The notes under the pieces were generated by a model. It was not told where the DNA came from. It saw only the letters and a program-made list of their open reading frames with translations, and made no database searches. 64,000 nt of DNA, taken from an uncultured Oscillospiraceae bacterium. GTDB lineage: Bacteria > Bacillota > Clostridia > Acetivibrionales > DTU013. Where the stretch lies: assembly GCA_964512095.1 (NCBI GenBank), contig CAZEIH010000017.1:267-64266 (forward strand), written 5' to 3'. Shown piece by piece: positions 25,189-60,322 of the stretch (positions are counted from its first letter, which is position 1; each line of letters starts with the position of its first letter). The translations under genes were made by a program, and so were the position numbers.

Positions 25189-25221
25189 CAGGGACAGGTG
25201 TCACACCAGTCCCCTTGTCAC
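25189..25221. repeat. right copy of the ~35-nt direct repeat
   Basis: See 24656-24694. It overlaps the stop codon of the O-antigen-ligase-like gene. Confidence 0.7.
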
Positions 25222-26849: not shown

Positions 26850-26897
26850 TAGTCCTCTCGTGTATGGAGCAATTACAATATTGCCTGGACAGCGTGC

Positions 26898-27626: not shown

Positions 27627-27639
27627 CTAAAATGTCCCC

Positions 27640-29093: not shown

Positions 29094-29148
29094 AATTTGC
29101 TAAAGATGACATAAAAATTATAACATCTTGAAACATATTGTCAACTAG

Positions 29149-30351: not shown

Positions 30352-30372
30352 AGCATTCTCCTGATGGAACCA

Positions 30373-32601: not shown

Positions 32602-32617
32602 AATACCTCACCCAAAA

Positions 32618-33784: not shown

Positions 33785-33805
33785 AACCCCACTCCCTGTC
33801 AATAT

Positions 33806-39516: not shown

Positions 39517-39550
39517 AATATATATTTAAGTTCCTTTACTATTACTATAA

Positions 39551-42920: not shown

Positions 42921-42921
42921 T

Positions 42922-45049: not shown

Positions 45050-45062
45050 CTTAATACCTTCC

Positions 45063-46268
45063 CTATAAATTTGTATAGTGTTTTTCCAGAATTTCAACAG
45101 ACCCTTTGAGACTAAGGTTTTCTTCAATATATTTTCTTCCGCGATTGCCCATTACAGTGAGCTTATCTGATATCGCCATTTCACTTGCTTTTTTGACAAA
45201 CCCCTGAGAATCAGCTGACCAGACCCATTCACCACATCCGGCTTCCACAATCAATTCCTTAATATCAGACACTTTATCAGTTGCAGCCAACACTGGCTTA
45301 CCATATTCCATATATGAAAGGATTCTTGATGGATAATTAGGGATTGTAAATCTTGGGTCAAGTACAATCAACCCAACATTACACTCTTTAGTAATTTCCT
45401 CATATTCATCTCTGGGAAGGTTTTCAATAACAAGAGCATTTTTTATATTGTAATACTTAACTGTTTGTTCTAGCTTGTACCTATCTGTCCCTCTTCCAAC
45501 AAACAAGAAGAAAAGCCCCTCATTATCCTTGCATTTCTCTATCACATTACATAAAAGATGAATACATTGGGGTCTTCCCATGTTGCCTCCAAATAAGAAA
45601 ACACAGGCGTCCTTTGGTATTTTATATTTATCTCTCATAATTGAAGAATTTCCAGGCTTGTATTCAACCAGTTTTTTTGTATTCGGAAATATTTCTACCT
45701 TCGCCGGACTAATCCATGGATTATGTTCTAATATATATTGTCTATTCGCATTAGACATACACCCTATTATATCTGCTACTTTATAGAGAGTTCTCTCCTT
45801 TGTCTTGAAATATCTATAGAATATTCCACCCTTCCTCATAATGCCTAAATCTACAGCATTCTGAGGAAATATGTCCTTTAGCATCAAATATGCAGGACAC
45901 TTAAATAGTCTTTTGGCCCATGCAACCAGTCCTGCATTTGTAACAGGTGGAGCCTCAAACAGTATGAAGTCAAACTGTTTATTCTTAAGGTGTTTCCTTA
46001 TTCCCCATCTCATTAAAATAGGGATTTTCAGTGTAGTAATACCCTTTTCCAGTAGCCCCACATCATAGTAGTTGCCGGTAACTATTCGTAAAACCTCAAA
46101 GCCACGTTCTGTATTCATCGCTGATTCTCTTTTCTTTCTTGTCTGCTCCGAAACGGCTACAATTATCTCATGGCCCGCCTCATGCAATGCTTCAGCTAAA
46201 TCAGTGTAAATTGTGGCTCCCTTTGTTGGCTCTGGAAATGATGTTGCAATATATAATACCTTCAACAC
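45063..46268 (-). CDS. glycosyltransferase family 4, WbuB-like (probable L-FucNAc transferase)
   Basis: GT-B fold, 401 aa. It is directly upstream of fnlABC, as WbuB-type transferases usually are. Confidence 0.7.
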   Translation of the reverse strand: MLKVLYIATSFPEPTKGATIYTDLAEALHEAGHEIIVAVSEQTRKKRESAMNTERGFEVLRIVTGNYYDVGLLEKGITTLKIPILMRWGIRKHLKNKQFDFILFEAPPVTNAGLVAWAKRLFKCPAYLMLKDIFPQNAVDLGIMRKGGIFYRYFKTKERTLYKVADIIGCMSNANRQYILEHNPWISPAKVEIFPNTKKLVEYKPGNSSIMRDKYKIPKDACVFLFGGNMGRPQCIHLLCNVIEKCKDNEGLFFLFVGRGTDRYKLEQTVKYYNIKNALVIENLPRDEYEEITKECNVGLIVLDPRFTIPNYPSRILSYMEYGKPVLAATDKVSDIKELIVEAGCGEWVWSADSQGFVKKASEMAISDKLTVMGNRGRKYIEENLSLKGSVEILEKHYTNL

Positions 46269-46284
46269 TTCTCACCCCATCATG

Positions 46285-46923
46285 CTATACCAGCTGTATA
46301 GATTCCTTTGTACTTGATTTTAATCTGTAATGATACTCATTCATTTCTCGTCCCTCTTTTGTAATATAGGACTTGTTCAATTCAAAGTAGTTTTTAATAT
46401 AAAAAGCATTTACTGAATCATTATTGAGCTTATCTGTTTCAAGCTTTATATAACTGAATCCATTACCATCAACTGACTCTTTTAGTGCATTAATAAGCAA
46501 TGTGCCTATACCCTTGTTTTTTGTTTCGGGGAGCACACCGATAGAGGATAGCTCAATATATGCTTCATCCCTGCTACTATCTTTGGAATATGTAAATGCT
46601 CTTAATATCCTGAACATTACCCTCGGCTTTCTAAAAAATGCTAACACACTGTAAAATGCAAAGGGAAAAAGACTTCTCCTAATTAGGTACCTATAAAAAC
46701 CGCTAATGTCCCTTGAATAGGCCAAAAAGCCTACAAGTCTGCCCTTGTCAAATGCACCTATTACATTTGATTCCTTATGGCTTATATATCCTTTATATAA
46801 ATGCTTTAAAAATCCCCTGCCTAAAAAAGTGAGAAAAAAGCCAGGAAATGTTCTTATATGAATGTCAACAATATCATCTACATATTGGTTTGAGCCTAAA
46901 GCTTCAATTTTCACTACTAACAC
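46285..46923 (-). CDS. GNAT-family N-acetyltransferase
   Basis: Acetyl-CoA motif region PETKNKGIGTLLINAL. 212 aa. Confidence 0.75.
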   Translation of the reverse strand: MLVVKIEALGSNQYVDDIVDIHIRTFPGFFLTFLGRGFLKHLYKGYISHKESNVIGAFDKGRLVGFLAYSRDISGFYRYLIRRSLFPFAFYSVLAFFRKPRVMFRILRAFTYSKDSSRDEAYIELSSIGVLPETKNKGIGTLLINALKESVDGNGFSYIKLETDKLNNDSVNAFYIKNYFELNKSYITKEGREMNEYHYRLKSSTKESIQLV

Positions 46924-47818
46924 TCCTGGTTTTTACTACATCTGTATCTGCATCTGCATCCTTTTTAACTAGTGCATAAACTGTTCTAAGCATAGTCTTG
47001 ATATTACCCATAAATGAAAACCTCTCAATATCACCTAAATTGAACTTCATCTTATCTGGCAACACCAGATTCATATAAACCACATCAACATCAGCAGCAG
47101 CAGTAGCAGTAGCAGTAGCAGCAGCAGTAGCAGTAGCAGTAGCAGTAGCAGTAGTAGTAGCAGTAGCAGCAGCACCAGTAGCATCGCCAGTAGCATCACC
47201 AGTAGCACCAGTAGCACCAGTATCATCAACCTCATAAACCCCATCAAGATTATCAGCTACTTTGAGTATACTTTCCTCATCCTTGTACTCGATACTTGCA
47301 TTTGAGGTAACACCGGCTGGCAGCAGCAGAGTTGCCAGCATTTCATCGGTATACAGCTCTACATATTTGACAACCTCCGGGCGAGTACCTACAAAGCTCA
47401 TATCGCCTTTAATTATATTCAAAAGCTGGGGTATTTCGTCGAGACGATATTTTCTTAAGCTCCTGCCGATTCGGGTAATTCTCACATCGTCACTCCTTGT
47501 GACTTGTGAACCAATTTTCTCAGCATTTTTAACCATTGTTCTAAATTTGAATATAGTAAAATGTCTTCCATATTGGGTTACTCTTGTCTGCTTGAATAGT
47601 ACAGAGCCTTTAGAGTCCAACCTTATGATTATACTTAGTATTAAAAACACCGGCGACAGAAGTATCAGGAAAATAGCAGAGGTGACTATGTCAAATAACC
47701 TCTTAACGAATAAGCTTAGCTTTTTCTTTTCCAATATGTCATAGTACCTTCTGACCTCAGTATTCTTCATGAATTCAGGCAACTTATCCCATTGTCGTAG
47801 CATCACCTTTATCTGCAC
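46904..47818 (-). CDS. PglC/WbaP-C-type monotopic phosphoglycosyl (priming) transferase
   Basis: Bac_transf motifs: a re-entrant helix, FKFRTM and DEIPQLLNIIKGDMSFVGTRP. Carries a ~45-aa (Gly/Asp/Ala/Thr)n insertion. Confidence 0.85.
   Translation of the reverse strand: MQIKVMLRQWDKLPEFMKNTEVRRYYDILEKKKLSLFVKRLFDIVTSAIFLILLSPVFLILSIIIRLDSKGSVLFKQTRVTQYGRHFTIFKFRTMVKNAEKIGSQVTRSDDVRITRIGRSLRKYRLDEIPQLLNIIKGDMSFVGTRPEVVKYVELYTDEMLATLLLPAGVTSNASIEYKDEESILKVADNLDGVYEVDDTGATGATGDATGDATGAAATATTTATATATATAAATATATAAADVDVVYMNLVLPDKMKFNLGDIERFSFMGNIKTMLRTVYALVKKDADADTDVVKTRSVSSEN
47092..47222 (-). repeat. GCT/ACT tri/hexanucleotide coding repeat
   Basis: Minus strand (GCTACT)n, (GCT)n and GGTGMTACT units encode TGATGATGDATGDATGAAATATTTATATATATAAATATATAAA. 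Confidence 0.9.
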
Positions 47819-47841
47819 CTCTCAACTCAATAATTACTAGC

Positions 47842-49053
47842 TCAAAATGCCAAAATTCTTTTAAATGAGCTGCAAACATATTCCACATCATCATCACTGA
47901 GTAATGTATGCAGTGGGAGTGTAATCTCGTTTGCATACTGCTTATAAGCATTCGGATAATCCTTTATATCAAAACCCAGGTTTTTGTAAGCAGTCATCAT
48001 CGGAAGCGGCTTATAATGCACATTACACACGATGCCAGCCTGGGCCATTCTAGTAATAATGCTATTTCTTCTCTGCTCCCCTATCCATGGTAGGTTTGCT
48101 AGGTAAAGATGTCCCGAAGAAGTAAAATTTTCTCCCCTATGCTGCAAACTCACAACCCCTTTGGATAACAATGCTTCATCGTACATCTCTATAACAGCAT
48201 GTCTTCTTTGCATGAGCCCTTCGTATCTACTTAGTTGCATCAAGCCAAATCCCGCCAATATATCAGTCATATTGCACTTGTATGCCGGATATATAATGTC
48301 ATACTCCCATGCTCCTATTTGTGTCTTCGCCAGCGCATCCTTGGACTGCCCGTGAAGGCTCATGAGCATATACTGTTTGTATAACCATTCATCGTCAATC
48401 CCTATATCGCCACGCCAAAGTGCCGCTCCTCCCTCAGCTGTAGTCATGTTTTTTACAGCGTGAAAGGAAAAGCATGTGAAATCTGCAGCCAGACCACAAT
48501 TCACATTGTTTTGTACAGCACCAAAGGCATGTGCGGCATCAGCCATTACAACCACCCTGTCCAATTGCTTCTGAAGGCTATTGTTAGCTCTGAAAATACA
48601 TTTTTTACTCTCTACTGCATCATATATCGCATCATAATCACACATCTTGCCTGCTATATCAACAGGTATAATGACCTTTGTTTTCTCATTTATAGCATCA
48701 GCCAGTCTACTGTAATCCATTTCGAATGAACCCGGTGCAAGATCCACAAAGACTATTTTTGCGCCCACATGATCTATCACTGATGCTGATGCCGAATATG
48801 TATAGGGTGTTGTTATGACCTCATCCCCAGGGCCTATTCCGAGTATGCGTAGGGTGAGCTCCATTGCTGCCGTTGCTGAATTTAGGCAGACTGCTTTATT
48901 TGATCCTACAAACTCCGAAATCCTTTGCTCTAACAATTTAGTCCTAGGCCCGGTTGTAATCCAGCCTGATTTCATAGCCTTTATTACTCCCTCTATTTCT
49001 GCATCTGTTATGTCAGGTGGCGAAAAAGATATGCTCCTTATTTTACTATTCAT
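47842..49053 (-). CDS. DegT/DnrJ/EryC1-family sugar aminotransferase (PglE-like)
   Basis: 403 aa. PLP-lysine region SFHAVKNMTTAEGG and an N-terminal SFSPPDITDAEI. Confidence 0.85.
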   Translation of the reverse strand: MNSKIRSISFSPPDITDAEIEGVIKAMKSGWITTGPRTKLLEQRISEFVGSNKAVCLNSATAAMELTLRILGIGPGDEVITTPYTYSASASVIDHVGAKIVFVDLAPGSFEMDYSRLADAINEKTKVIIPVDIAGKMCDYDAIYDAVESKKCIFRANNSLQKQLDRVVVMADAAHAFGAVQNNVNCGLAADFTCFSFHAVKNMTTAEGGAALWRGDIGIDDEWLYKQYMLMSLHGQSKDALAKTQIGAWEYDIIYPAYKCNMTDILAGFGLMQLSRYEGLMQRRHAVIEMYDEALLSKGVVSLQHRGENFTSSGHLYLANLPWIGEQRRNSIITRMAQAGIVCNVHYKPLPMMTAYKNLGFDIKDYPNAYKQYANEITLPLHTLLSDDDVEYVCSSFKRILAF

Positions 49054-49077: not shown

Positions 49078-49154
49078 TCAATTCGCTTCGCTTAGGAAAT
49101 AACCATTCATTGCCAATCTATACAGATCAAAATCTTCTGAAGACATAGATAAAA
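49078..49154 (-). repeat. short (internally deleted) copy of the dispersed repeat
   Basis: Both termini are conserved (TCAATTCGCTTCGCTTAGG…TCTTCTGAAGACATAGATAAAA), but the central 12-bp hairpin is missing. Confidence 0.7.
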
Positions 49155-49249
49155 AGCAAAGCTTCGCTATCACATATGTCGTTGCGGGCTTTGGTATCCC
49201 TGCCCAGTGTCCATATGAGTCGGCGCCTTGCTTTTAACATTCTAAACCT

Positions 49250-49272
49250 CCGGCAGGCCGAAACACTGGCGG
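49250..49272 (-). promoter_or_regulatory. hairpin with conserved 9-nt loop (copy 2)
   Basis: Plus strand reads CCGGCAG-GCCGAAACA-CTGGCGG. The loop is identical to that of 59633-59655 while the stem sequence differs. Confidence 0.45.
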
Positions 49273-49526
49273 AAGTCATCGAAATTTGTATGCATAAGTT
49301 CATCTTGATTGGTTAATTATTGCCTCTTATGTCATTTTAATGATTATGGGGTTATTTGTCAATATGCTATTTGCATAACAATTGGTTCAAAATTATTATG
49401 AAGTTTAGTATTTAAGCAGTGACATAGATAAATTTTTTTATGAATGTGCAATAATAGGTATTCCTTTTGTTGGCAATATGTATTACAATATGTATGTGTA
49501 CAAATTTTGTAAACAGGAGTGGTAAA

Positions 49527-52010
49527 ATGTTTATTTATAAGAAATTATCCTTTATTTTAATTGCTGCATTGATTTTTTCTATATTAATCCCATTTCCTGC
49601 AACAGCAAAAGAGGCTGTAGATGTAACTGAAAAAATTCAGCTTTTAGGGAAGCCTGCTCAATCTCAGCCCTATGCTAGAAATATTTGGGACATGCAGGTC
49701 TTCAAGGGGAAGCTATACGTCTGCTGTGGCAACAGCAGCAATAATGCTCCCGCATCTAACGCAGGGCCAATTGATGTTCTTAGCTATGATTCCGTTAAAG
49801 GCATTAGTAAGGTTTATACAGTCAACGAAGAGCAGGTTGATATCTTCAGAGTCATCAACGAAGTTCTATACATTCCCGGACATGATTCAAAGGATTCCTG
49901 GGATTTTGGCAATTACTACATCTTAAGCGATAGCTGGAAGAAGGTTAGGACAATTCCACAGGGCGTCCATGTCTATGATATGGCTGGCTACAATGGAAAG
50001 CTATACGCTGCTACCGGCACCAATGGCTACAGTGAGGTGGTAGTCTCTAGCGATAACGGCCTTACCTGGAATAAAGCAGCCCCTGAGGATGGAACCATCT
50101 TTCACACCACAGGCTACAGAGCCTATACCATGTTTGAATTTAAAGATGTTTTGTATGCATCCAGCAAGTTTATGGGAGTATCAAGCAATTGCAATAACAT
50201 GCTAAAAATAACCAAAGAAGGTATTACTTCTATTAATGTAGAAGGTCTAAAAATGATGCCGGGGTTGCCATCGTCTACCATGTATGCCAGCTGTAAACTT
50301 ATCAGACCTGTTGAGTTCAAGGATAACTTGTTGTACATAGGCGCTGAGATACACAATGATCATCAATATATACCACTCGCTTTGTATGCTTCCAGCAATA
50401 TTGGAGATGCCAGGATAATAACCCTTCCTGAAAGCACTGCTCTGCCCTATGATATTATTACACGCGATTCCCTTATATACGTTCTCGCCAGTGTTAAAGT
50501 CTCTGACAGCTCTTTTAAAAACTTAGTGTATAAGAGCACTGATTTAAATACCTGGGAGCAGGTGCTTAGCTTTAACAGTAGTGCCTTTGCCCGATCCTTT
50601 GAAGAAATAAATGGTGATTTCTTCTTTGGACTTGGCTGTGACACGGCTTATATGCCTGAATCATCGGGTAATATATTGAAGGTAAGTAAGTCCGCATATG
50701 CACCTACTCAAGTAGTGCAAGCTGTGACCAAGCAGGAGCAGGAGCCTGCGCTTAAAACTCAGTCAGAAGCCAACTCTGGGACGAAGACGGAGGCTAAATC
50801 GGAAACCAAGACTAAATCTGAAACCACATCGGCAGCTAAGTCGGAAACCAAGGCAGAGACCAAATCTGAGACCACATCAGTAGCTAAGTCGGAGGCGAAG
50901 TCCGAGACTAAATCAGAAACCATGGCAGAGACCAAATCAGAAACCAAGGCCGAGACTAAATCTGAGGCCACATCGGTAGCTAAGTCAGAGGCGAAGTCCG
51001 ATACTAAATCAGAAACCATGGCTGAGACCAAATCAGAAACCAAGGCCGAGACTAAATCTGAGGCCACATCTGTTGCTAAGTCAGAGGCGAAGTCCGATAC
51101 TAAATCAGAGACCACATTGGTAGCTAAGTCGGAGGCGAAGTCCGATACTAAATCTATTGAAGAAACCGCGACGATTGGCACCACAGAAAACAATACGCAA
51201 GCTAATAACCCTACCTCATCAAAATCCTCGACTGAGGTCAGTAGAAGCAGCAGGCAGTCATTTGCTAACTCTTCTTCAATAAATGTAAGCAGCAAGCTTA
51301 TGTCAACCGGCATTCAGCTAACTAAGCCCATTACCGCCAATACATCAGAACTCCAGATATTCGGTAGTACCTTGTATCTTTTACAAGAAAACACCTCTGA
51401 GCCAAGTATCATTGGTATAGATCTTGCCAAAGGCGCATTGATTAGTAATGCTGCAGCTGATTCCACCTATAAAAAGAACCAATTAGCGAATAATAAATCT
51501 CATACAACCAAAGAAAATATGGAGTCCTTAAAATTAGCAGTTACGAACATGTTACCTGTTTTGTCGGTCTATAACTCTATAGACATATTCAAAGCTATAA
51601 AAACTGAAGGCTATGAAATATATATTCCAGCTAAGAAAACAATTAGAAAACGGGTCGCCTCCATCGGTTTATACGTTACATCCTTAGGAGGCTCTTCAGG
51701 AGACTCTTCAGGAGGTTCTTCACGCCGCATTAACTTCAACAGCTCTGATGCAAAGCCCTGTGACATAATTATCCGAGATTCCGATGTCTATGTGTTGGCA
51801 GTGGAGGAATACGAAGACAATACCTTCAGAAGCATTGTTTGTCAAAGTAGAGATTTAGTTAACTGGACAGAGCTATTTGTTTTTACCAATGAAGCACCTG
51901 CAGTATCATTTGAGGAACACAATGGTGATTTCTACTTCGTACTTAACTGCGATGAAAAAAATAAATCTGCGTCAAATAAACTAATGAAGGTTAGTAGAAA
52001 TGATTATTAA
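49527..52010 (+). CDS. secreted repeat protein with Asp-box (BNR-like) motifs
   Basis: AGGAG lies 7 nt before ATG 49527. Signal peptide MFIYKKLSFILIAALIFSILIPFPATA. One Asp-box SSDNGLTW, a central (KSETKAE…) repeat block, and a C-terminal ~85 aa that duplicates residues about 330-415. Confidence 0.7.
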   Translation: MFIYKKLSFILIAALIFSILIPFPATAKEAVDVTEKIQLLGKPAQSQPYARNIWDMQVFKGKLYVCCGNSSNNAPASNAGPIDVLSYDSVKGISKVYTVNEEQVDIFRVINEVLYIPGHDSKDSWDFGNYYILSDSWKKVRTIPQGVHVYDMAGYNGKLYAATGTNGYSEVVVSSDNGLTWNKAAPEDGTIFHTTGYRAYTMFEFKDVLYASSKFMGVSSNCNNMLKITKEGITSINVEGLKMMPGLPSSTMYASCKLIRPVEFKDNLLYIGAEIHNDHQYIPLALYASSNIGDARIITLPESTALPYDIITRDSLIYVLASVKVSDSSFKNLVYKSTDLNTWEQVLSFNSSAFARSFEEINGDFFFGLGCDTAYMPESSGNILKVSKSAYAPTQVVQAVTKQEQEPALKTQSEANSGTKTEAKSETKTKSETTSAAKSETKAETKSETTSVAKSEAKSETKSETMAETKSETKAETKSEATSVAKSEAKSDTKSETMAETKSETKAETKSEATSVAKSEAKSDTKSETTLVAKSEAKSDTKSIEETATIGTTENNTQANNPTSSKSSTEVSRSSRQSFANSSSINVSSKLMSTGIQLTKPITANTSELQIFGSTLYLLQENTSEPSIIGIDLAKGALISNAAADSTYKKNQLANNKSHTTKENMESLKLAVTNMLPVLSVYNSIDIFKAIKTEGYEIYIPAKKTIRKRVASIGLYVTSLGGSSGDSSGGSSRRINFNSSDAKPCDIIIRDSDVYVLAVEEYEDNTFRSIVCQSRDLVNWTELFVFTNEAPAVSFEEHNGDFYFVLNCDEKNKSASNKLMKVSRNDY
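50760..51155 (+). repeat. tandem coding repeat, 90-nt period (Lys/Ser/Glu/Thr/Ala-rich)
   Basis: The 30-aa unit SVAKSEAKS(E/D)TKSETMAETKSETKAETKSEAT is repeated nearly identically, with shorter 6-8-aa sub-repeats on both sides. Confidence 0.9.
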
Positions 52011-52465
52011 AATAAACGCCTAAGGCGGTAATACATCCTCATCACCATCTTTCTGACAGGTATAATTAGAAGCCATAATCCTACTAAACATCTTAAAAGC
52101 ATATTATTGCAATCAATAATATGCTTTCCCCTTCTTATCCTGGAAACAGTAGCAATCAACTGGTGAGATACAAGAGGCCCTTCTACCCACTGCTGCGCGT
52201 CACCTATTATATAAAAGCTACTCTCTTCCTTTTTCATTACTCTGTGCATTACATATTCGCCTGTCAATCGTTTAATTAGAACGATATCTCCCCTTTTCAC
52301 AGAATCGTAGGAATTGCTTGCAAGCTCTACACTGTCCTTACCTTCACGTAGAAATGGATACATACTCATCCCGGTTACCGTTATCCAGGCCTTTTCACCA
52401 TTATTCAGTATCTCAGCGACCAAACTAAACAGTTCTGCCGCCTTCACCTTTACAAGCTCATGCAT
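52007..52465 (-). CDS. S24/S26-type serine peptidase-like protein, C-terminal TM
   Basis: TGMSMYPFL (GxSMxP Ser box), GDIVLIKR (Lys box) and the hydrophobic tail LLRCLVGLWLLIIPV. Overlaps the upstream gene by 16 nt. Confidence 0.65.
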   Translation of the reverse strand: MHELVKVKAAELFSLVAEILNNGEKAWITVTGMSMYPFLREGKDSVELASNSYDSVKRGDIVLIKRLTGEYVMHRVMKKEESSFYIIGDAQQWVEGPLVSHQLIATVSRIRRGKHIIDCNNMLLRCLVGLWLLIIPVRKMVMRMYYRLRRLF

Positions 52466-53346
52466 TTATACACCAACTCCACAGCTTCATAGTCAGGGCG
52501 GCATTGTAGCAGATAAACGGGAACTGTTTCTACCAGCTTTTCAATGACCTTAATAGTTGCCTCCATTAATCCTCCATCAAAGTATGGGAGAAAGCACCGA
52601 GGCATCAACATTTCCAGCGCTCTGGCCATATCGAGTCTTTCAATCCTATTCTCAGATGACCGGGTCAGCATCACAACACCCTCCAATGGTACCTTCAAAT
52701 TAGCAAATATATCTGTTGAACCACTCCAGGGCGTACCACACAGCATCGGCTTGCCCTCAAGGAAACGAATAACCGGTCTATCGTCATTCAAAAGTGTAAC
52801 TCTGTCTCCGTACCTTTCCTTCCACAGCCCTGTATGTGTTGACTTGCCTGTACCTGAAGGAGCAGATACAATAACACCCTTACCGTCTATTGCAAATGAG
52901 GAGGAATGTACAGTAATGCTATCCATACTAATCATTGCGTTTCTGTATGCTATACCTGTGAGCTGAAATGTGTGGTAATCATTCCATTTGACACGTCTAT
53001 TATCACTTATGGGATAAGTCAAATCAGACTCTATGTATCTAATGGATATATTCCTCCAAAAATAATCTGCTTCAAGAATGGTGTCAAACTCCAGATTTCT
53101 TGTACTTGTCATAGCTATGAAAAAACCGTTGTCAGGAGCTTTTTTTCTATACCATCTTGATGTTTCATCAAGTATCAGATCACCATCAGGAATAACAATG
53201 TTATCCACCTTTTCCGATTTAACAATCAAATCGACAGCTGAAGCCGACGTATCCGATGCTTCCATTTTGAATATGGCTCCTCTTTCTTCAAACAGATCGT
53301 TGGATCCTATAAATTCGACAATAATACCAGCAATGTTGTAAAGCAA
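52450..53346 (-). CDS. HPr-kinase-C-terminal-domain-like P-loop protein
   Basis: VHSSSFAIDGKGVIVSAPSGTGKSTHTGLW resembles the HprK C-domain motif (H-A-S…G…G-x-S-G-x-GKS). TTG start at 53346, 9 nt after AGGAG. Confidence 0.65.
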   Translation of the reverse strand: MLYNIAGIIVEFIGSNDLFEERGAIFKMEASDTSASAVDLIVKSEKVDNIVIPDGDLILDETSRWYRKKAPDNGFFIAMTSTRNLEFDTILEADYFWRNISIRYIESDLTYPISDNRRVKWNDYHTFQLTGIAYRNAMISMDSITVHSSSFAIDGKGVIVSAPSGTGKSTHTGLWKERYGDRVTLLNDDRPVIRFLEGKPMLCGTPWSGSTDIFANLKVPLEGVVMLTRSSENRIERLDMARALEMLMPRCFLPYFDGGLMEATIKVIEKLVETVPVYLLQCRPDYEAVELVYKCMSL

Positions 53347-53427
53347 ATTTATTCACTCCTGACAATTACATAATATAATAGCTTAGAGAAATTCCCTTAT
53401 GCAGGCTGAGCCTTCCTTTTGGTTCAG

Positions 53428-53524
53428 TCAATTCGCATCGCTCAGGGAGTCAGGTGGAGACTGAACTCCGCTTGACCAAGGAAGTTAATTATTGAGTTCA
53501 GCGTCTCCTGAAGACATAGATAAA
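53428..53524 (-). repeat. full-length copy of the dispersed repeat (inverted relative to 57323 and 59445)
   Basis: TCAATTCGCATCGCTCAGGGAGTCAGGTGGAGACTGAACTCCGCTTGACC…CCTGAAGACATAGATAAA. About 85% identical to the reverse complement of 57323-57425. Confidence 0.85.
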
Positions 53525-53528
53525 GGGC

Positions 53529-53560
53529 AAAATAAAAGGGATTGTACAATTAACAACCCC
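53529..53560 (-). terminator. rho-independent terminator directly after the second precursor gene
   Basis: Minus RNA reads GGGGUUGU-UAAUUGU-ACAAUCCC-UUUUAUUUU. The G·U pair would be an A·C mismatch on the plus strand, so the orientation is minus. Confidence 0.7.
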
Positions 53561-53581
53561 CCATTAAAGACATACATAATA

Positions 53582-53710
53582 TTAGGAATTCAAACCTACC
53601 CAGGTATTATACTCTGCAGAGCAAGCCCCATCATAGTATGTACATGTACAAACTCTCTCATCTGCGCGTAGTTCTACACAGTTTATTTCGGGAGCAACAT
53701 ATTTTTTCAT
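53582..53710 (-). CDS. putative RiPP precursor peptide A2 (42 aa)
   Basis: Not in the ORF track. AGAGGTG lies 7 nt before the ATG. Sequence: MKKYVAPEINCVELRADERVCTCTYYDGACSAEYNTWVGLNS. Confidence 0.75.
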   Translation of the reverse strand: MKKYVAPEINCVELRADERVCTCTYYDGACSAEYNTWVGLNS

Positions 53711-53746
53711 TGTTTTTCACCTCTTTCCTCTTCAAGTTTGTATTTC

Positions 53747-53893
53747 TCACGAATCGCTAAGGGCTATAAGACCAACCATTGTGGGAATGTTTTGAACCTC
53801 CCATGTAGTACAACTTCCTGTGCAATTGCTGGCTATACGCTCCTCAACTCTTAGCTCTACACATGATAGTGTAGGTGTAACATATGCTTTCAT
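53747..53893 (-). CDS. putative RiPP precursor peptide A1 (48 aa)
   Basis: Not in the ORF track. AGGAGGG lies 7 nt before the ATG, 30 nt after the rSAM stop. Sequence: MKAYVTPTLSCVELRVEERIASNCTGSCTTWEVQNIPTMVGLIALSDS. Confidence 0.75.
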   Translation of the reverse strand: MKAYVTPTLSCVELRVEERIASNCTGSCTTWEVQNIPTMVGLIALSDS

Positions 53894-53923
53894 CTGGAAC
53901 CCTCCTTTCCATAATTTTTAAAA

Positions 53924-55051
53924 TCAATATTCTACATCCAGCTCCTTGCGGGCTTTTGCAGTCTCGCAAAGATATGGGGCTGGTTTAGTGAAGCTGCCTG
54001 TTTCAACCTTCAGTCTTGCAGGACAAGCCATGCATTTTGAGCGAAGGTCGCAATTATCACATTCCTTGCAGGAAGGTACATCCAGGCAGGATTTCTTTAG
54101 CAGTTCCCAAGATTTCGAAAATCCAAGACTCTTTACGTCGAACCAGGGATCTGTCAATAAGCCGCAAGGCGTCAATCTGCCATCCCAGGTCAACCAAAAG
54201 GCACCCTTCCCCGCCGTACATCTAAAGGCGGACGAAGCAGTCATATGCGGTATCTCTCCCACTAACTCATTAAGCTGGCCATCTGTCATAACATCATTAT
54301 TTACTGATAGCTCAGCCCTCTTCCTTGTTTCTTCCCGGTCCATGAGCTTTAATCTGAAGTCCTGAATCATTTTCTCATACCTTGCCAGCTCCAGAGGACC
54401 AAGCCTGCAGTTTTCAGGATCAGTGCCACAGCCCTCTCTCCTTGGCGCAACATAGTTGACTATGCCCAGTTGCCCTCCAAGACTGTCTGCTAAAGAATAT
54501 ATCTCCTCAAATTCACTACTATTTTCATCTATAACAGTGGTCTTTAGCTCTACCTTAATATTCTCAGCTAATAGCAGCTTTATTGCATTTACCGTATTGT
54601 GGAAGCCCTCCGGGTGTCCTGTGACTCTACCATAGGTCTCTGGACTTGCCCCATAAAGTGTAATGCTCACCTTTGATGGTGGCCTCTTCCCCAATCTGTG
54701 TGCCTTTTCAGCGTCTATGAGACCTCCGTTAGTATAGAGGGTAATACTCATTCCCATTTCTGAAAGAGCCTCGTATATCTCAAAGAAGTCCTTTCTCATG
54801 AATATCTCTCCACCGGTTAATGTCATAAAAATGAGCCCTGCATCTCTGGCCTGCCTTCCCAATGAAATCCACTGTGATGCTGTCAGCTCGTTTTCAAGGA
54901 ATGCTTTATCATCTGGCACACTGCATACGTAGCACATTTTGCAATGAAAGCTACATCTGGCTGTCAATTCAAAAAAACCTGATGCAGGATTCCCTACAAT
55001 AATTGACCTGTCAATTAAATTTTTGTATAATTGAGCCCATGACATACTCAT
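53924..55051 (-). CDS. radical SAM / SPASM-domain peptide-modifying enzyme
   Basis: CSFHCKMC (CxxxCxxC) near the N-terminus. The Cys-rich C-terminus is FRCTAGKGAF…TPCGLL…CLDVPSCKECDNCDLRSKCMACPA…YLCE. Overlaps the PqqD-like gene by 4 nt. Confidence 0.85.
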   Translation of the reverse strand: MSMSWAQLYKNLIDRSIIVGNPASGFFELTARCSFHCKMCYVCSVPDDKAFLENELTASQWISLGRQARDAGLIFMTLTGGEIFMRKDFFEIYEALSEMGMSITLYTNGGLIDAEKAHRLGKRPPSKVSITLYGASPETYGRVTGHPEGFHNTVNAIKLLLAENIKVELKTTVIDENSSEFEEIYSLADSLGGQLGIVNYVAPRREGCGTDPENCRLGPLELARYEKMIQDFRLKLMDREETRKRAELSVNNDVMTDGQLNELVGEIPHMTASSAFRCTAGKGAFWLTWDGRLTPCGLLTDPWFDVKSLGFSKSWELLKKSCLDVPSCKECDNCDLRSKCMACPARLKVETGSFTKPAPYLCETAKARKELDVEY

Positions 55052-55335
55052 TGTTGGTCCCCGCCATCTGCTGTTTCCAGTAGATTTTTCTGATGCAGTG
55101 TATCTAAAAACCTGATAACATCATTTTTTGCAGTTGCCTCGTCGATATCATATTCTTCAAGCAAAGCTGATACTAATTGCTGAGTGTTGGCATCACTTTC
55201 CATCAGGCGCCATAAAATCGCACCACTTTCACTTAGCGTCATTATTCCGTTGAATTCTACAACTCTTGCCCCCAATGGAACAACTACCCATTGCTTGGCA
55301 ATCTCCCGTAACATGAAACCGCTTTTGACCTTCAT
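55048..55335 (-). CDS. PqqD-family protein (RiPP recognition element)
   Basis: 95 aa. FMLREIAKQWVVVPLG…FNGIMTLSESGAILWRLM…LVSALLEEYDID…AKNDVIRFLDTL matches the PqqD-like winged-helix pattern. Confidence 0.8.
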   Translation of the reverse strand: MKVKSGFMLREIAKQWVVVPLGARVVEFNGIMTLSESGAILWRLMESDANTQQLVSALLEEYDIDEATAKNDVIRFLDTLHQKNLLETADGGDQQ

Positions 55336-55432
55336 CTACAAACCCCTTTATGATATGTTGTAATTTTATCTATTTAGTAGCCTTTTTATGTAATATTATA
55401 CAGTATCATCTTTTAAATGAATTTTCATGTCT

Positions 55433-55461
55433 ATATTATAATTATTTCATCTGTAAGTCAA
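55433..55461 (-). promoter_or_regulatory. candidate promoter for the pqqD-rSAM-precursor unit
   Basis: Minus strand reads TTGACT, a 17-nt spacer, then TAATAT (a TATAAT also occurs at 15 nt). It lies in a 222-nt AT-rich gap. Confidence 0.4.
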
Positions 55462-55557
55462 TACCAATTTTAATATTTCCAGTAATACTTTTGCTTTTAT
55501 TTTATTTTTTTACTTTTTATGTGGCATAGTCGCTTTTTTCATGGCACAATTACTTTA

Positions 55558-57255
55558 TTAGACAGTCAGTAATTTTCTATTCTCCCTTTCCGGTTCTAAA
55601 AACCCCTCCCTAAGTCTGAATACTTTACTACAGCTATTTAGGGCAGTCATTCTGTGAGTAATCATTATACAGGTTCGAGCATGGCCTATTCCCTGTATAC
55701 TTTGTAATACCTTCTCTTCCAGCTCTATATCAAGGGCTGAGGTAGCCTCGTCAAGTATTATAATCGGCGCCTTCCTAAGATAGGCCCTGGCTATTGCTAT
55801 TCTCTGGGCCTGGCCTTCAGAAAGCCCGTATGCTTTTTCTCCAATAACAGTGTTAATTCCATCTGGAAGCTTTTCGACAAATTCCAGCGCACAGGCTGCT
55901 TTTAATGCTTCCTTCATTTCACTCTCACTTGCCTCCTGCTCTCCTGTGCGCAGATTGTCAGCTATTGTTCCACTTAATAATGTATTTCCTTGAGGAACAT
56001 ACGAGAACCAGCTTCTTGTGGCACATGTAATTTCACTTTTTTCGTCCCTTTCATTGAAACAGTAGATACTTCCAGCATCAGGCTTTAAAAGAGCAAGCAT
56101 GAGGCGTATTATCGTTGTTTTACCTTCGCCGGAGCTTCCTATTATGGCTACTATTTCACCTGGCAACGCCTCCATTGAAATATTATTCAGTACAATTTCA
56201 TCATCTTCATAGCTAAAGCTGACATTTTCAAATTTAATCCCTACCGAGCCAGGAGTCTCCAGTAGCTCATCAGTTACCTCTGTATTCAGCCTCTCAAGCT
56301 CTATCAACCTGCCTGCAGATGCCAGTGCTGCAATAATCTGAGGCAGCATCCTTGAAAGACCCATAAAGGGAGCCTGAACCTGATTGACAAGCTGCAGGAA
56401 GGCGGTCATTGTACCGTAAGTCGCTGTCCCCCTGGCTACCTTCACTATACCCCAGCCAAAGGCTGACCCATAGCCAAGCCAGTATCCAATAGACATTATG
56501 GTGCTAGCCATTACTCCGGCTTTGCTTCGCTTTGTCACCAGCTCTAGCTTTTCCTTTTGCAGCTCTCCAATTTTCTTCTTGCTATTTTCTTCAAGATTAA
56601 AGGTCTTAATAACCAGAAGGTTCTGCAGGTATTCCTGCATTTGAGACCGGTAAGTACTTTCGGTTTCCTGTATCTGTATGTGCATTTTGCCAAGTCTTCT
56701 GCCATAAAATCTGCTCACAAGTATCGTAAATGGCGCAAGTACAAATGCAAGTATCGCTAAGCTCTTGTCATAAACCATAAGTGTCACAAATGCCGCCGTT
56801 AGCTGTACTCCTAAGGAAATGATCTGTGGCAGTACGCTAATTGAACCGTTTGTAACAGAATTAATGTCGCTTGTCAAACGGGTCAGAAGATCACCACTGT
56901 GATATCTTGAGACCTGGGCCCACTCAATGTTTATCAGCTTTGCAAAAATACCCTGCCGCATATCATTGGAGTACCTTTCATGAACTCTTGCTGTATACAC
57001 TGTAAGAAATGCACGGGAAATTTGCATAAATAAAATCACACTCACAAATAAAGCGATGTTAGGTCCAGCACTTTTTAATCCATCATAAATAGCACTGTCT
57101 ACGAGATTTTTTGACGCTACCGCCATTAAAACTGAGGCAATAGCAGCCAAAGATTCCACAGCTATTATGAGAATAAGGGCTCCCAGGTATGGCCTTATGC
57201 TTGCAGCTAACCATCTGATATTGGATAAACTCTTTATTACTTTCTTAATGTTCAT
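55558..57255 (-). CDS. ABC exporter, fused permease/ATPase (no C39 peptidase domain)
   Basis: 565 aa with 6 TM helices, Walker A GSSGEGKTT, signature LSEGQAQR and Walker B IIILDEATS. Confidence 0.9.
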   Translation of the reverse strand: MNIKKVIKSLSNIRWLAASIRPYLGALILIIAVESLAAIASVLMAVASKNLVDSAIYDGLKSAGPNIALFVSVILFMQISRAFLTVYTARVHERYSNDMRQGIFAKLINIEWAQVSRYHSGDLLTRLTSDINSVTNGSISVLPQIISLGVQLTAAFVTLMVYDKSLAILAFVLAPFTILVSRFYGRRLGKMHIQIQETESTYRSQMQEYLQNLLVIKTFNLEENSKKKIGELQKEKLELVTKRSKAGVMASTIMSIGYWLGYGSAFGWGIVKVARGTATYGTMTAFLQLVNQVQAPFMGLSRMLPQIIAALASAGRLIELERLNTEVTDELLETPGSVGIKFENVSFSYEDDEIVLNNISMEALPGEIVAIIGSSGEGKTTIIRLMLALLKPDAGSIYCFNERDEKSEITCATRSWFSYVPQGNTLLSGTIADNLRTGEQEASESEMKEALKAACALEFVEKLPDGINTVIGEKAYGLSEGQAQRIAIARAYLRKAPIIILDEATSALDIELEEKVLQSIQGIGHARTCIMITHRMTALNSCSKVFRLREGFLEPERENRKLLTV

Positions 57256-57322
57256 AAGTCATTCCTAACCAATACTAATCGACTCCTTATTGTTAACCTT
57301 TTTTCCTTATGACCAGTCTTTG

Positions 57323-57425
57323 ATTTTATCTATGTCTTCAGAAGACGTTGACCTCTGAATTAATTAACTTCCTTGGTCAGATGGAGTTCAGTCTCCACCT
57401 GACTCCCTGAGCGAAGTGAATTGAT
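57323..57425 (+). repeat. full-length copy of the dispersed ~103-nt repeat
   Basis: 97/103 identical to 59445-59547. Contains the GTCTTCAGAAGAC palindrome, TTAATTAA and the hairpin GGTCAGATGGAG-TTCAGT-CTCCACCTGAC. Confidence 0.9.
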
Positions 57426-59360
57426 ATGCCTTCTTGTTTTTATGAAACCTTTGTTCTCTTGTATTGCTTTGTATGATCTAGTTGCCTGTTCGCTTTCATA
57501 TAAATCCATATCCTGTATCTCAGGTATAAAATAATCCTTCGTGTATCTGTATGTCGGTACAAGCTTAGCCATGGTTTCTCTGAGCATTTCATCGTTCTCC
57601 ATGGAATTTTCCAACGCCTTAATACACATGATAACTTCTTGGAAGCTTATATCATGCTGTTTGCCGATAAATATCTTTTCATGGGCAGTTTTCTCCAGTC
57701 CCTCCTCTGCCATCAGTAGCTCCTCGTAGAGCTTCTCTCCAGGCCGCAAGCCTGAGTATTCTATCTTTATATCCACATACGGTTCAAAGCCTGACAGGCT
57801 AATAAGATCCCGGGCTAAATCTGCAATTTTAACAGGCTCGCCCATGTCAAGCACAAATACCTCACCGCCCTCCCCCAGCGCTCCTGCCTGAATCACCAGC
57901 TGAGCAGCCTCAGGTATGGTCATGAAGTAACGTATAATATCAGGGTGAGTGACTGTGACAGGGCCCCCCTGAATAATTTGCTTCTTGAATAGCGGTATGA
58001 CACTACCATTACTACCTAGAACATTACCAAAGCGGACAGCTGCGAATTTGGTTTCACTCATTCTATTCATGGATTGGACAATAATCTCAGCCAGACGCTT
58101 TGATGCGCCCATTATATTAGTAGGGTTTACTGCCTTGTCGGTAGACACAAGTATGAATTTCTTTGTTCCAAAGTCTATCGCCCGCCTACAGGTATTTAGC
58201 GTACCGAATACATTGTTCTTTATAGCTTCCGAAGGATTTCCCTCCATCAATGGCACATGCTTGTGGGCTGCCGCATGGAATACAACTCCCGGCCTATAGC
58301 GCTCAAATATCTCCCTGAGCCTTCCACGGTCCCTACAGGAGCCTATGAGGACTTCCAAGTCAAGCTTATCCTTGTACGTATAGACCAGCTCATTTTGTAA
58401 ATCGTAAGCGTTGTTTTCGTAAATATCAAATATAACCAGCTTTTTTGGCTCAAATTTAGCAATCTGCCTGCAAAGCTCTGAGCCTATGGATCCCCCACCG
58501 CCTGTCACTAACACTACTTCATCCTTGAGGTATCCGGATATTTCGTCCATATTGAGAGTAATCTCGTCACGTCCCAAAAGATCTTCTATATCTACATCCC
58601 TAAGCTGATTGGCTGTCAATTCCCCATCAATTATATCCATCATGTTGGGAAGTGTTTTTAGCTTGCATTTGGTATCCTTGCTTATCCTTAACAAATCAGC
58701 AACATCCCGCTTTGAAGCCGATGGTATGGCAACTACTATCTCATCTATTTTGTACTGCTTTGCTATCTCCCTGATTCTCTCTCTTCCTGATACCACCGGA
58801 ATATTATTAATACAGGTACCATGCTTTGTTATATCATCATCTACCACTACAACTGGTACCAGGTTCATATCGTTATGGTTTTTGAACTCCTTTATTAACA
58901 TAGAGCCTGCACTTCCAGCACCAACCATCATAACCCTGCTGGGCTTACGGTTGTTCCTTTGCAAATAAAGCCTTGCTCTGCGAAGATATCTGCATCCAAT
59001 CCTAACAGAACCAATAAGCATACATAAAAATATCCATGAAATTATGTGTATGGATATTGGGTATGTCCTTCCTGTCAACTGGCTTATTAGTAATCCAAGC
59101 CCTGTAGCTGTGATGGTTCCAACTGTAATCTGCATCATTTCCTCTATGCTTGCATATTCCCAAAGGCTTCTATAGAGTCCGAAAAAATAGAATACAACAA
59201 TTTGAACAATGCTAATCATCAGTGCATTTCTTAAGAAGTTATCAAAGTATTTCTGCGGTATGGCTATATCAAATTTTATGAGCAATGCAAGGCATAGTGA
59301 AATATTTACTATTAAAGCATCTGCTATGACAAGTACAATTTTTCTTAATTTAACTGACAT
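57360..59360 (-). CDS. PglF/CapD-type membrane-anchored UDP-sugar 4,6-dehydratase
   Basis: Four N-terminal TM helices, VLVTGGGGSIGSEL and FGNVLGSNGSVIP (Polysacc_synt_2). ATG 59360 follows GGGAGG. The last 22 codons lie inside the repeat. Confidence 0.85.
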   Translation of the reverse strand: MSVKLRKIVLVIADALIVNISLCLALLIKFDIAIPQKYFDNFLRNALMISIVQIVVFYFFGLYRSLWEYASIEEMMQITVGTITATGLGLLISQLTGRTYPISIHIISWIFLCMLIGSVRIGCRYLRRARLYLQRNNRKPSRVMMVGAGSAGSMLIKEFKNHNDMNLVPVVVVDDDITKHGTCINNIPVVSGRERIREIAKQYKIDEIVVAIPSASKRDVADLLRISKDTKCKLKTLPNMMDIIDGELTANQLRDVDIEDLLGRDEITLNMDEISGYLKDEVVLVTGGGGSIGSELCRQIAKFEPKKLVIFDIYENNAYDLQNELVYTYKDKLDLEVLIGSCRDRGRLREIFERYRPGVVFHAAAHKHVPLMEGNPSEAIKNNVFGTLNTCRRAIDFGTKKFILVSTDKAVNPTNIMGASKRLAEIIVQSMNRMSETKFAAVRFGNVLGSNGSVIPLFKKQIIQGGPVTVTHPDIIRYFMTIPEAAQLVIQAGALGEGGEVFVLDMGEPVKIADLARDLISLSGFEPYVDIKIEYSGLRPGEKLYEELLMAEEGLEKTAHEKIFIGKQHDISFQEVIMCIKALENSMENDEMLRETMAKLVPTYRYTKDYFIPEIQDMDLYESEQATRSYKAIQENKGFIKTRRHINSLRSGSQVETELHLTKEVN

Positions 59361-59444
59361 CTCATTTTCCTCCCGTGTTTTGCGCAGCAATCTCTACACT
59401 GGCCTATTCATGTACGTATAACACTAATTTATATATTCAAAATC

Positions 59445-59547
59445 ATTTTATCTATGTCTTCAGAAGACGCCGACCTCTGAATTAATTAACTTCCTTGGTC
59501 AGGTGGAGTTCAGTCTCCACCTGACCTCCTGAGCGAAGCGAATTGAT
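59445..59547 (+). repeat. full-length copy of the dispersed ~103-nt repeat
   Basis: Contains a perfect 12-bp hairpin GGTCAGGTGGAG-TTCAGT-CTCCACCTGACC. It sits in the loaP-to-capD leader. Confidence 0.9.
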
Positions 59548-59632
59548 TTAGTCCAAAAAAGGCATGGTTTTACCAATTGTATATATATTGCTCCTATACA
59601 ATGGCATCACTAGCCTTTGACCTCCTACTCTC

Positions 59633-59655
59633 ATACCGGGCCGAAACACCGATAT
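59633..59655 (-). promoter_or_regulatory. hairpin with conserved 9-nt loop (copy 1) in the polysaccharide-operon leader
   Basis: Plus strand reads ATACCGG-GCCGAAACA-CCGATAT and can be extended to 11 bp. On minus-strand RNA the stem is fully paired with one G·U. Confidence 0.45.
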
Positions 59656-59732
59656 GGGACTTGGATTTTGTTTAAAGCCTTTACAACGATAGCCCCGGGT
59701 TATCGATAGATGTGAGTAATTCATCAGTCCTT

Positions 59733-60257
59733 CTATATTGGTTTCAGGATAGAAATCCCTAGATCTACTGTCCTTTCTTCTCCAAGGAAATCCAGCCGTA
59801 TCTTAGCTCTTTCTTTGCGATGGTCTATACTAATAATTACCCCTTCAAGGGAAAAGAGAGGACCGTCTACCACTTGAACTCTCCCATTCTCTATCAGCAC
59901 ATTCGAAAAACCAATTTCTTCGTTATTAGAAATCAAGCTGGACAATACAGCCATTTCTCGGCGGTCTATACTTGCCACTGAATTTCCTGTCTTTAGTAAT
60001 CTAATTACATTTGGTATGTTCTTTAAACCATAATACGTATCTGGAGTTATATCACCATTAATTAAAACATAGCCGGGAAACAAGACCCTTGTTTCTACCC
60101 TCCATATGCCGCCCTTCCTGACCCGCAGCTTTCTTTTGGGTACCACTACGGTATAGTCATCACCCAATCTATACCTGACTCTCTCCTTTGCCCTCTCCTC
60201 TTCACCTGTAACAACAAACACACCATGCCATTCATCTAATCGTGAATCATACAACAT
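59733..60257 (-). CDS. loaP: NusG-paralogue transcription antiterminator (LoaP-like)
   Basis: 174 aa. NGN-like N-terminus (WHGVFVVTGEEERAKERV…LFPGYVLI) and a KOW-like C-terminus (VQVVDGPLFSLEGVIISIDHRKERAKIRL). It is the first gene of a polysaccharide locus. Confidence 0.7.
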   Translation of the reverse strand: MLYDSRLDEWHGVFVVTGEEERAKERVRYRLGDDYTVVVPKRKLRVRKGGIWRVETRVLFPGYVLINGDITPDTYYGLKNIPNVIRLLKTGNSVASIDRREMAVLSSLISNNEEIGFSNVLIENGRVQVVDGPLFSLEGVIISIDHRKERAKIRLDFLGEERTVDLGISILKPI

Positions 60258-60293
60258 TATTAAAACCCCTTAGTATCCTTAGCAACAATACCC

Positions 60294-60322
60294 ATTTTAT
60301 AACATTTAGCGAGCAAAGTCAA
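60294..60322 (-). promoter_or_regulatory. sigma-A-type promoter for loaP
   Basis: Minus strand reads TTGACT (60322-60317), a 17-nt spacer, then TAAAAT (60299-60294). Confidence 0.5.

Follow-up and report, generated by a model that had tools for sequence, protein, structure and literature searches.

The 64-kb window analysed here, a stretch of 64,000 nucleotides (nt) from an uncultured Oscillospiraceae bacterium, contains a gene for the NusG paralogue LoaP and, on the same strand, two small hairpins with a common apical module. We propose that both sites are leader elements that recruit this LoaP to RNA polymerase. By analogy with Bacillus velezensis this explanation is highly probable, and the window would be a clear new example of a known system. 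A sequence-only reading of the same DNA had already suggested a LoaP-recruitment hairpin with a second site for the downstream unit. That suggestion is favoured by the match of the protein to the LoaP model, by the published UNCG-type ligand of LoaP, and by a covarying hairpin family that is tied to loaP loci. The processing signal that the reading had offered as an alternative gained no specific support.

The window LoaP scored 176.2 bits against NCBIfam NF033641 (cut-off 125) and fell below the cut-offs of the other models, namely NusG (67.6; cut-off 135.7), UpxY (36.7; cut-off 100) and RfaH (33.6; cut-off 144.5). Its best match in the PDB was 8f5g_A (E = 2.4e-27), while housekeeping NusGs reached about 1e-11. 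The RNA-contacting residues of the B. velezensis LoaP are E40, R41, K128 and I143. In the LoaP alignment, the arginine at position 47 of the window protein is invariant, and it is a candidate for the equivalent of R41. The gene is the only NusG-like gene, and hence the only loaP, in the window. It adjoins a long polysaccharide operon with capD/pglF, DegT, Bac_transf and more than 20 co-directional genes. Such a location, next to long polysaccharide or secondary-metabolite operons, is a stated association of loaP (PMC12691694).

On the minus strand, copy 1 of the hairpin reads AUAUCGG-UGUUUCGGC-CCGGUAU and copy 2 reads CCGCCAG-UGUUUCGGC-CUGCCGG. Both 23-nt sequences lie where they had first been noticed, and the pairing described for them holds as well: seven stem positions in each copy, one of them non-Watson-Crick (U·G in copy 1, C·C in copy 2). 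The 9-nt loop of the sequence-only reading does not hold. Minimum free energy (MFE) folds of both copies show a bulged U, a G-C pair, a U·G pair and a UUCG tetraloop atop the variable 7-bp stem. In copy 1, the module consists of the bulged U at 59648, G-C at 59647/59640, U·G at 59646/59641 and the tetraloop at 59645-59642. Copy 2 has its bulged U at 49265, followed by G-C, U·G and UUCG (49262-49259), and its stem extends outward to ACUUCCG.../...CGGAGGU. Copy 1 sits 78 nt past the loaP stop codon, in a leader whose reported length of 372 nt is correct provided that capD starts with the ATG at 59360.

We fetched 80 loci from GTDB species genomes using the LoaP alignment. Loci L001-L057 are LoaP relatives with 35-84% identity, and L058-L080 (n = 23) are housekeeping-type NusG controls with 25-31% identity. 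The exact 9-mer was found on the loaP strand, 16-305 nt past the loaP stop codon, in 36 of the 57 LoaP loci; a further 5 have it at +636 to +1615. Its flanks differed in sequence and kept their complementarity. In a gapless alignment of 43 sequences, 88.6% of the cells were paired in the proposed structure, compared with 64.6% after shuffling (the observed value was reached in 0/500 shuffles) and 29-49% with the partner strand slid. Double changes occurred in all 7 variable stem pairs. The stem cells across the family included 112 G·U versus 36 A·C, which favours an RNA of this strand.

A covariance model (CM) of the family, R1, matched the 2 window copies and 42 LoaP loci at E < 0.01, always on the target strand; at this threshold there was no match in the 23 NusG control loci or elsewhere in the window. 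Recurrence of the hairpin downstream of other loaP genes had been put forward as a check and was borne out: about 49 of the 57 LoaP loci and 0 of the 23 NusG loci carry the element close behind the gene on the target strand. Relaxed searches recovered the loop variants UACG, UGCG and UCCG. The N of UNCG can accordingly be U, A, G or C while U, C and G stay fixed, which is the signature of a selected UNCG tetraloop. In L048, the closing U·G pair is replaced by U-A. The apical module and the flanks are kept among LoaPs down to 35-40% identity, and the stems vary freely.

The family element, at about 79 nt, is larger than the hairpin and has conserved flanks (5′ AAAAUCCGAA, 3′ GAGGUCAUA). About 13 nt separate the 5′ motif, (A)AAAAUCCGAA, from the core, and 13-16 nt separate the core from the 3′ motif, AGGAGGUCAUAG, in which A/U/A stand at 94/81/94%. 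The UCC/GGA flanks are able to form an outer helix (72% paired in the majority register), with some covariation such as UUC/GAA; the sequences lend moderate support to this helix across the family. We built a leave-out model, R3, from other genomes without any window sequence, and searched both strands of the window with filters off. Both copies matched over the full model (Table 1), and R3 found no further element in the 64 kb, where the next best match reached 16.1 bits (E = 0.6). The copy 1 element, which is orthologous to the leaders of L001, L002, L003, L005 and L007, consists of the 5′ motif ACAAAAUCCAAG, the hairpin and the 3′ motif AGGAGGUCAAAGG. The corresponding parts of copy 2 are ACAAAUUUCGAUGAC, the hairpin and AGAAUGUUAAAAG. 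Rfam gave no match in the window at gathering thresholds (including EAR and other leader RNAs), and nothing relevant in 48900-60400 at E up to 10.

The sequence-only reading had also pointed to GGAGGT after both stems. The hexamer is present in both copies, but it is not homologous between them. In copy 1 it is the family 3′ motif, and the homologous position in copy 2 reads AGAAUGUUAAAAG. Its placing needs correction too. In copy 1, the 7-bp stem is followed by GGAGGU after 7 nt and not after 13 nt; counted from the 9-mer, the distance is 14 nt. In copy 2, it does not stand immediately behind the stem but overlaps the inner stem and pairs with the upstream ACUUCC. A leader peptide after the conserved AGGAGG (open reading frames, ORFs, of 19-20 codons in the window and L002) was considered separately and rejected because of early stop codons in L001 and poor spacing between the Shine-Dalgarno sequence and the start.

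The element tracks the target leader, not loaP. In L047, where capD and loaP diverge, the element (UACG loop) is found in the capD leader, on the capD strand. In L201, loaP lies directly before DegT, the place taken by copy 2 in the window, and is followed by an element of 52.6 bits; an orphan element of 47.4 bits with a UACG loop heads the cassette of PqqD and radical SAM genes. L200, from the same genome as L012, also has two elements, one after loaP (39.7 bits) and one upstream of the DegT region (33.4 bits). Seen in two independent genomes besides the window, one element per transcription unit is thus a recurrent design, parallel to dfn and mln in B. velezensis. In L057, the match is 3 kb from loaP on the opposite strand. 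Most matches of the commonest 14-mer, GGTGTTTCGGCCCG, in a metagenome scan were chance matches in GC-rich contigs, and about 6 of 119 were family members; in L110, L125 and L160, loaP is 85-220 nt upstream of the element. The same tracking is seen in two bioreactor metagenome contigs, where orphan elements head operons of the exopolysaccharide (EPS) type. These are L130, 1173-1251 (-), and L156, 3004-3084 (+), with no loaP within 3-6 kb upstream. Both directly precede a gene of about 175 aa that resembles a MarR-family EPS-associated regulator (TIGR04176, below cut-off).

In B. velezensis, the ligand of LoaP is a "UNCG-type" hairpin with near-identical copies in the dfn and mln leaders (Jermain 2025, mBio, PMC12691694). 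The hairpin is needed for antitermination in vivo and in vitro, it is bound by LoaPs from several species, and the dfn leader also has a pause site and a large NusA-enhanced terminator (PMC12691694). We compared the window with the dfn hairpin sequence, GGCCAAUCGCGUCUUCGGCACGUUGCC, from the oligo table of that paper. The sequence-only reading had left this comparison open, and the window hairpins do resemble the dfn hairpin. Like dfn and mln, both window copies form a hairpin in the sense-strand RNA with a UUCG tetraloop of the UNCG type. The 3′ strand UUCGGC of dfn is identical in the window core, and in each case 3 nt on the 5′ side stand opposite 2 on the 3′ side and leave one unpaired U. 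The location is also the same, in the 5′ leader of a long biosynthetic operon adjoining loaP, with a second copy heading a second operon of the same genome (near-identical in dfn and mln). As in dfn, there are about 50 nt from the (predicted) transcription start to the hairpin, and a large terminator-like hairpin is predicted downstream.

There are also differences. The apical 5′ triplet is UGU in the window and GUC in dfn, and the closing pair is U·G instead of C-G. The element of Paenibacillus chitinolyticus (L056) reads AAUCG-A-UGU-UUCG-GC-A-CGUU, and that of dfn reads AAUCG-C-GUC-UUCG-GC-A-CGUU. Only 4 nt differ between these two, just 5′ of the tetraloop (A-UGU versus C-GUC), so L056 links both forms. 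Unlike dfn, the clostridial family has the conserved flanks and the outer UCC/GGA helix; no 5′ motif was seen in the dfn sequence from +3 to +52. Copy 1 lies downstream of loaP within the same predicted transcript, unlike dfn and mln, and the targets are polysaccharide and radical SAM peptide genes, not polyketide synthases. In the literature consulted, which did not extend to Elghondakly 2021 and 2024, we found no description of the clostridial UGU triplet, the flanks or two-site regulons with a radical SAM cassette.

Other explanations of the hairpins have to be weighed against LoaP recruitment. The hairpins could be generic mRNA stabilisers or RNase processing sites, which would protect a 5′ end or uncouple the loaP mRNA from the biosynthetic mRNA without any part for LoaP. 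UNCG hairpins are unusually stable, copy 1 is at the loaP/capD junction, copy 2 is near a predicted 5′ end, and the binding of LoaP is proposed by analogy. However, a stabiliser needs stability, not sequence, yet the bulged U, the G-C and U·G pairs and the flanks are conserved while the stems vary. The element is also confined to loaP loci and partner operons, with none in the 23 NusG controls or the rest of the window, and the published homologous hairpin binds LoaP and is needed for antitermination (PMC12691694). We regard a stabilising or processing role as unlikely. A signal at the DNA level, either an ops-like element of the non-template strand or the operator of a regulator with incidental hairpin potential, is very unlikely in our view. 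It would agree with RfaH and UpxY, the best-studied NusG paralogues, which read non-template DNA. There is a loose resemblance to ops (GGCGGTAG) in the conserved 3′ motif GGAGGUCAUAG, whose conservation exceeds the needs of pairing. But operators conserve sequence, not pairing, and the stem covaries with many G·U cells. Moreover, a transcription bubble has no room for a hairpin of 35 to 50 nt, and neither leader has an ops match with ≤2 mismatches. A DNA-level reading is conceivable if confined to the 3′ motif, which would be a second determinant.

Intrinsic terminators or attenuators, which would end loaP transcription at copy 1 and yield a short leader transcript at copy 2, might be expected as stable hairpins after a gene or early in a leader, as these are. 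Neither core runs into a U-tract, and the hairpins are therefore not terminators: copy 1 continues with GAGAGUAGGAGG and copy 2 with UUUAGAAUGUUAAAAG. The terminator scan calls neither core, and conservation of a bulge and a loop sequence from genus to genus is not a property of terminators, which makes this explanation highly improbable. The last alternative is chance recurrence of the 9-mer with fortuitous flanking complementarity. The 9-mer GCCGAAACA (minus strand UGUUUCGGC) occurs exactly 2 times in the 64-kb window versus 0.27 expected, and at least 2 occurrences were reached in 3/100 shuffles, so the count alone is only marginal. Chance frequency had been raised as a concern in the sequence-only reading, and the leave-out CM answers it, since both sites are matched at full length, flanks included, with E-values far beyond chance (Table 1). 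Given also the conservation and covariation across about 50 genomes, the probability of chance recurrence is practically negligible.

Several points weigh against recruitment of LoaP by the window hairpins. For this organism, we infer LoaP binding by analogy with dfn and mln in B. velezensis. The triplet UGU instead of the GUC of dfn places the bulged U one pair further from the loop, and recognition of the UGU-type module by the window LoaP is assumed. In 8 of the 57 LoaP loci, the element was not detected in the fetched sequence. The seed alignment was selected by the exact 9-mer, and the invariance of the core is partly by construction, which the variants found by regular expressions and CMs mitigate. 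The promoters are consensus matches only. A simple terminator scan calls neither leader hairpin of the terminator-like type, both being non-canonical. In a crude family-wide scan, terminator-like sites were found downstream of 56% of the elements versus 40% of control windows, a weak enrichment, and unit 2 contains about as many canonical terminator-like sites as chance predicts.

The features of the window are listed in Table 1. Unit 1 would start at the promoter-like site upstream of loaP, and the scan found no promoter-like site between loaP and hairpin 1. The genes after hairpin 1 are, in order, capD/pglF-like, ABC exporter, PqqD-like, radical SAM, two precursor-like peptides, ScmC-like and S24-like peptidase. 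The predicted start of unit 2 is the best minus-strand promoter-like site in 46.5-60.8 kb (49362-49334), and hairpin 2 would lie at about +50 to +55. As the sequence-only reading had it, copy 2 is upstream of the aminotransferase where the polysaccharide genes resume; this DegT gene begins unit 2.

Table 1. Features of the window that bear on the two putative LoaP leader elements (strand and coordinates in the 64-kb window).
Feature	Coordinates	Strand	Basis or remark
loaP, 174-aa NusG paralogue	59733..60257	-	Pfam NusG (NGN domain); NCBIfam NF033641 antiterm_LoaP
Putative LoaP leader element, copy 1	59605..59681	-	R3 57.2 bits, E 2.3e-11, model positions 1-79
Putative LoaP leader element, copy 2	49222..49299	-	R3 47.9 bits, E 5.1e-9, model positions 1-79
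Hairpin core, copy 1	59633..59655	-	7-bp stem and apical module; MFE fold, stem covariation across 43-50 homologues
Hairpin core, copy 2	49250..49272	-	Stem CCGCCAG/CUGCCGG and apical module; MFE fold
Promoter-like TTGACT-17-TAAAAT upstream of loaP, predicted start of unit 1	60294..60322	-	10/12 consensus match
Terminator-like large hairpin AAAGGC...GCC then UUUUUU, leader 1	59555..59618	-	Fold -21.6 kcal/mol, z -2.5
Unit 1 genes after hairpin 1	52007..59390	-	Pfam tags of homologues; kept beside loaP in relatives
ABC exporter	55558-57255	-	
PqqD-like ORF	55048-55335	-	
Radical SAM enzyme	53924-55051	-	
Precursor-like peptide, 48 aa	53747-53893	-	Paralogous to 42-aa peptide
Precursor-like peptide, 42 aa	53582-53710	-	Paralogous to 48-aa peptide
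ScmC-like protein	52450-53346	-	
S24-like peptidase	52007-52465	-	
Promoter-like TTGACA-17-TAAAAT, predicted start of unit 2	49334..49362	-	11/12 consensus match
Terminator-like large hairpin AAAAGCAAGGC...GCUUUGC then UUUUU, leader 2	49151..49235	-	Fold over 146 nt: -47 kcal/mol, z -2.4
Unit 2, 21 co-directional genes, gaps ≤55 nt, ~24 kb polysaccharide operon	25218..49053	-	Starts with DegT aminotransferase, Bac_transf

We suggest the following mechanism. Unit 1 would supply LoaP, which would bind both hairpins as they are transcribed and join the elongation complex; the complex could then pass terminator-like structures in the leaders and within the operons. With one LoaP gene and two recruitment sites, processive antitermination would act on two operons, as it does on dfn and mln in B. 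velezensis, and the expression of both units would be coupled to that of loaP. The second unit would need its own site because an opposite-strand gene separates the two units. The terminator-like hairpins at 59618-59555 and 49235-49151 are candidates for LoaP-sensitive terminators, as judged from their predicted folds. In leader 1, the 3′ part AUGCC-UUUU is kept in near relatives; in leader 2, the U-run derives from the end of an inverted repeat fragment.

The stretch of about 80 nt that follows hairpin 1 (59560-59625, -) is kept in L001, L002, L003, L005 and L007. In the six sequences compared, it contains an inner hairpin (CAUUGUAUA.../...UAUACAAUG), apparently covarying, ahead of AUGCC-UUUU. 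This conserved region may be a leader terminator or a pause module. The best terminator-like site of the region is in unit 1 at 53562-53536 (-), where a 10-bp stem is followed by UUAUUUU. This site lies between the second precursor-peptide gene, which it directly follows, and the ScmC-like gene. It would be the best internal candidate for read-through by the LoaP-bound complex, and could be a terminator that sets stoichiometry.

NusG paralogues of other systems offer further comparison. At a pause site, RfaH of Proteobacteria reads the ops element, a hairpin of 12 nt in the non-template strand of the DNA. The RfaH system and the window have in common that a NusG paralogue goes with a short cis element, that this element lies in leaders of long envelope or polysaccharide operons, and that one factor is shared by several operons. 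Unlike ops, the window element is an RNA structure of 35 to 79 nt with covariation, and its protein is far below the RfaH cut-off. No match to the ops 12-mer GGCGGTAGNNTG with ≤2 mismatches was found in 49054-49526 or 59358-59732, and the 26 such matches window-wide (28.6 expected) are at chance level. In the capsule operons of Bacteroides, one UpxY factor serves each operon together with an anti-factor, UpxZ, and UpxY reads duplex (about 40 bp) and non-template DNA signals upstream of its own gene (PMC11685472). As in this UpxY/UpxZ-opsX system, the window has a NusG paralogue as the first gene of a polysaccharide operon and a recruitment site in the leader. Unlike UpxY, the window LoaP would serve two operons through an RNA hairpin, its site is downstream of loaP, and its score does not reach the UpxY cut-off. 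The lambda N/boxB system is similar: its antiterminator is held on RNA polymerase by a small hairpin of the nascent RNA and allows processive read-through. Unlike LoaP, the lambda protein is unrelated, boxB has a GNRA-like pentaloop, and NusA, NusB, NusE and NusG are needed. As a control, LoaP does not bind boxB (PMC12691694).

These data leave the known LoaP mechanism unchanged. To our knowledge, LoaP is the only NusG paralogue that is recruited by RNA, and we know of no dissection of its determinants other than at dfn and mln in one Bacillus. The roughly 50 relatives offer a natural mutagenesis set, in which the bulged U, G-C, U·G or U-A and U-N-C-G are fixed and the other positions are free. 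The dfn hairpin starts at about +53, and in the published deletion series the positions +43-52 "immediately preceding" it were removed (PMC12691694). These 10 nt are essential in that published work, and the conserved flanks of the clostridial element may bear on this finding. One LoaP would commonly serve two operons through separate sites, and LoaP regulons could be predicted from sequence with a CM, of which Rfam has none for this element. Ruminiclostridium sufflavum DSM 19573 (L034) and Pseudobacteroides cellulosolvens (L057) are cultured organisms suited to such study.

A more far-reaching reading is possible, but we hold it to be rather doubtful. The clostridial LoaP signal may be a composite of about 79 nt, in which the 5′ AAAAUCCGAA and 3′ GAGGUCAUA flanks form an outer helix and a single-stranded tail, and the tail adds a second determinant to the hairpin. 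The regulons would also be multi-operon networks that join an exopolysaccharide pathway and a radical SAM peptide cassette (PqqD, radical SAM, ScmC) via separate elements. The tail might act as a pause or contact non-template DNA in a manner analogous to ops, making a bipartite RNA-plus-DNA site.

The sequence-only reading had taken the ABC, small ORF, radical SAM, unknown and S24 genes for an inserted block. The cassette of ABC, PqqD, radical SAM, ScmC-like and S24-like genes follows loaP-capD in L001, L002, L010 and L012 and is nearby in L003 and L008. Because it is conserved beside loaP-capD in many relatives, it is a part of these clusters and not an insertion. Copy 2 had likewise been seen as a duplicate of copy 1. 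Leader 1 is orthologous to the leaders of relatives over about 130 nt, and no homologue of leader 2 was found among the related loci. In direct orientation, the two leaders share 11 nt, GUGUUUCGGCC, which is the family-wide core, and no further sequence. Copy 2 is therefore not a recent segmental duplicate.

The cassette inside the LoaP-headed unit 1 (52007-57255, -) resembles those for ribosomally synthesized and post-translationally modified peptides. It is kept beside loaP and EPS genes in L001, L002, L003, L008, L010, L012, L200, L201 and L204. Its two precursor-like peptides share the leader MK.YV.P...CVELR..ER. The gene on the opposite strand (49527-52010, +) encodes a secreted protein of 847 aa with a signal peptide and a BNR-like SxDxGxTW motif. 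The C-terminal part of its domain is duplicated internally, and a KSETK-type low-complexity linker derives from 12-nt tandem repeats (50758-51162). No Pfam model matches its N-domain family (about 400 aa), which is widespread among the EPS loci of Clostridia, Paenibacillus and others. Homologues of the gene are at the same place in L010, L200 and L201, and it is divergent from the DegT operon in the window, L200 and L201.

A genome-specific repeat of about 105 nt, TCAATTCGC...GACATAGATAAA, resembles repetitive extragenic palindromic sequences or miniature inverted-repeat transposable elements and has a perfect 12-bp GC-rich palindrome (GGTCAGGTGGAG/CTCCACCTGACC). Copies lie at 59446-59548 (-), 57323-57425 (-), 53417-53531 (+) and 49074-49160 (+, centrally deleted), and fragments at 14075-14106 and 21176-21206. 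The copy at 57.4 kb overlaps the final 22 or so codons of the capD ORF. We rejected the repeat as a part of the mechanism or as an invertible switch: it is absent from all 80 related loci, has opposite orientations in the two leaders and is also found between other genes. Inside the polysaccharide operon, 29117-29144 (-) is a perfect 12/12 match to an extended -10 promoter (TTGACA-16-TATAAT with an upstream TG). It is just upstream of the gene at 28401-29093 and may be an internal promoter.

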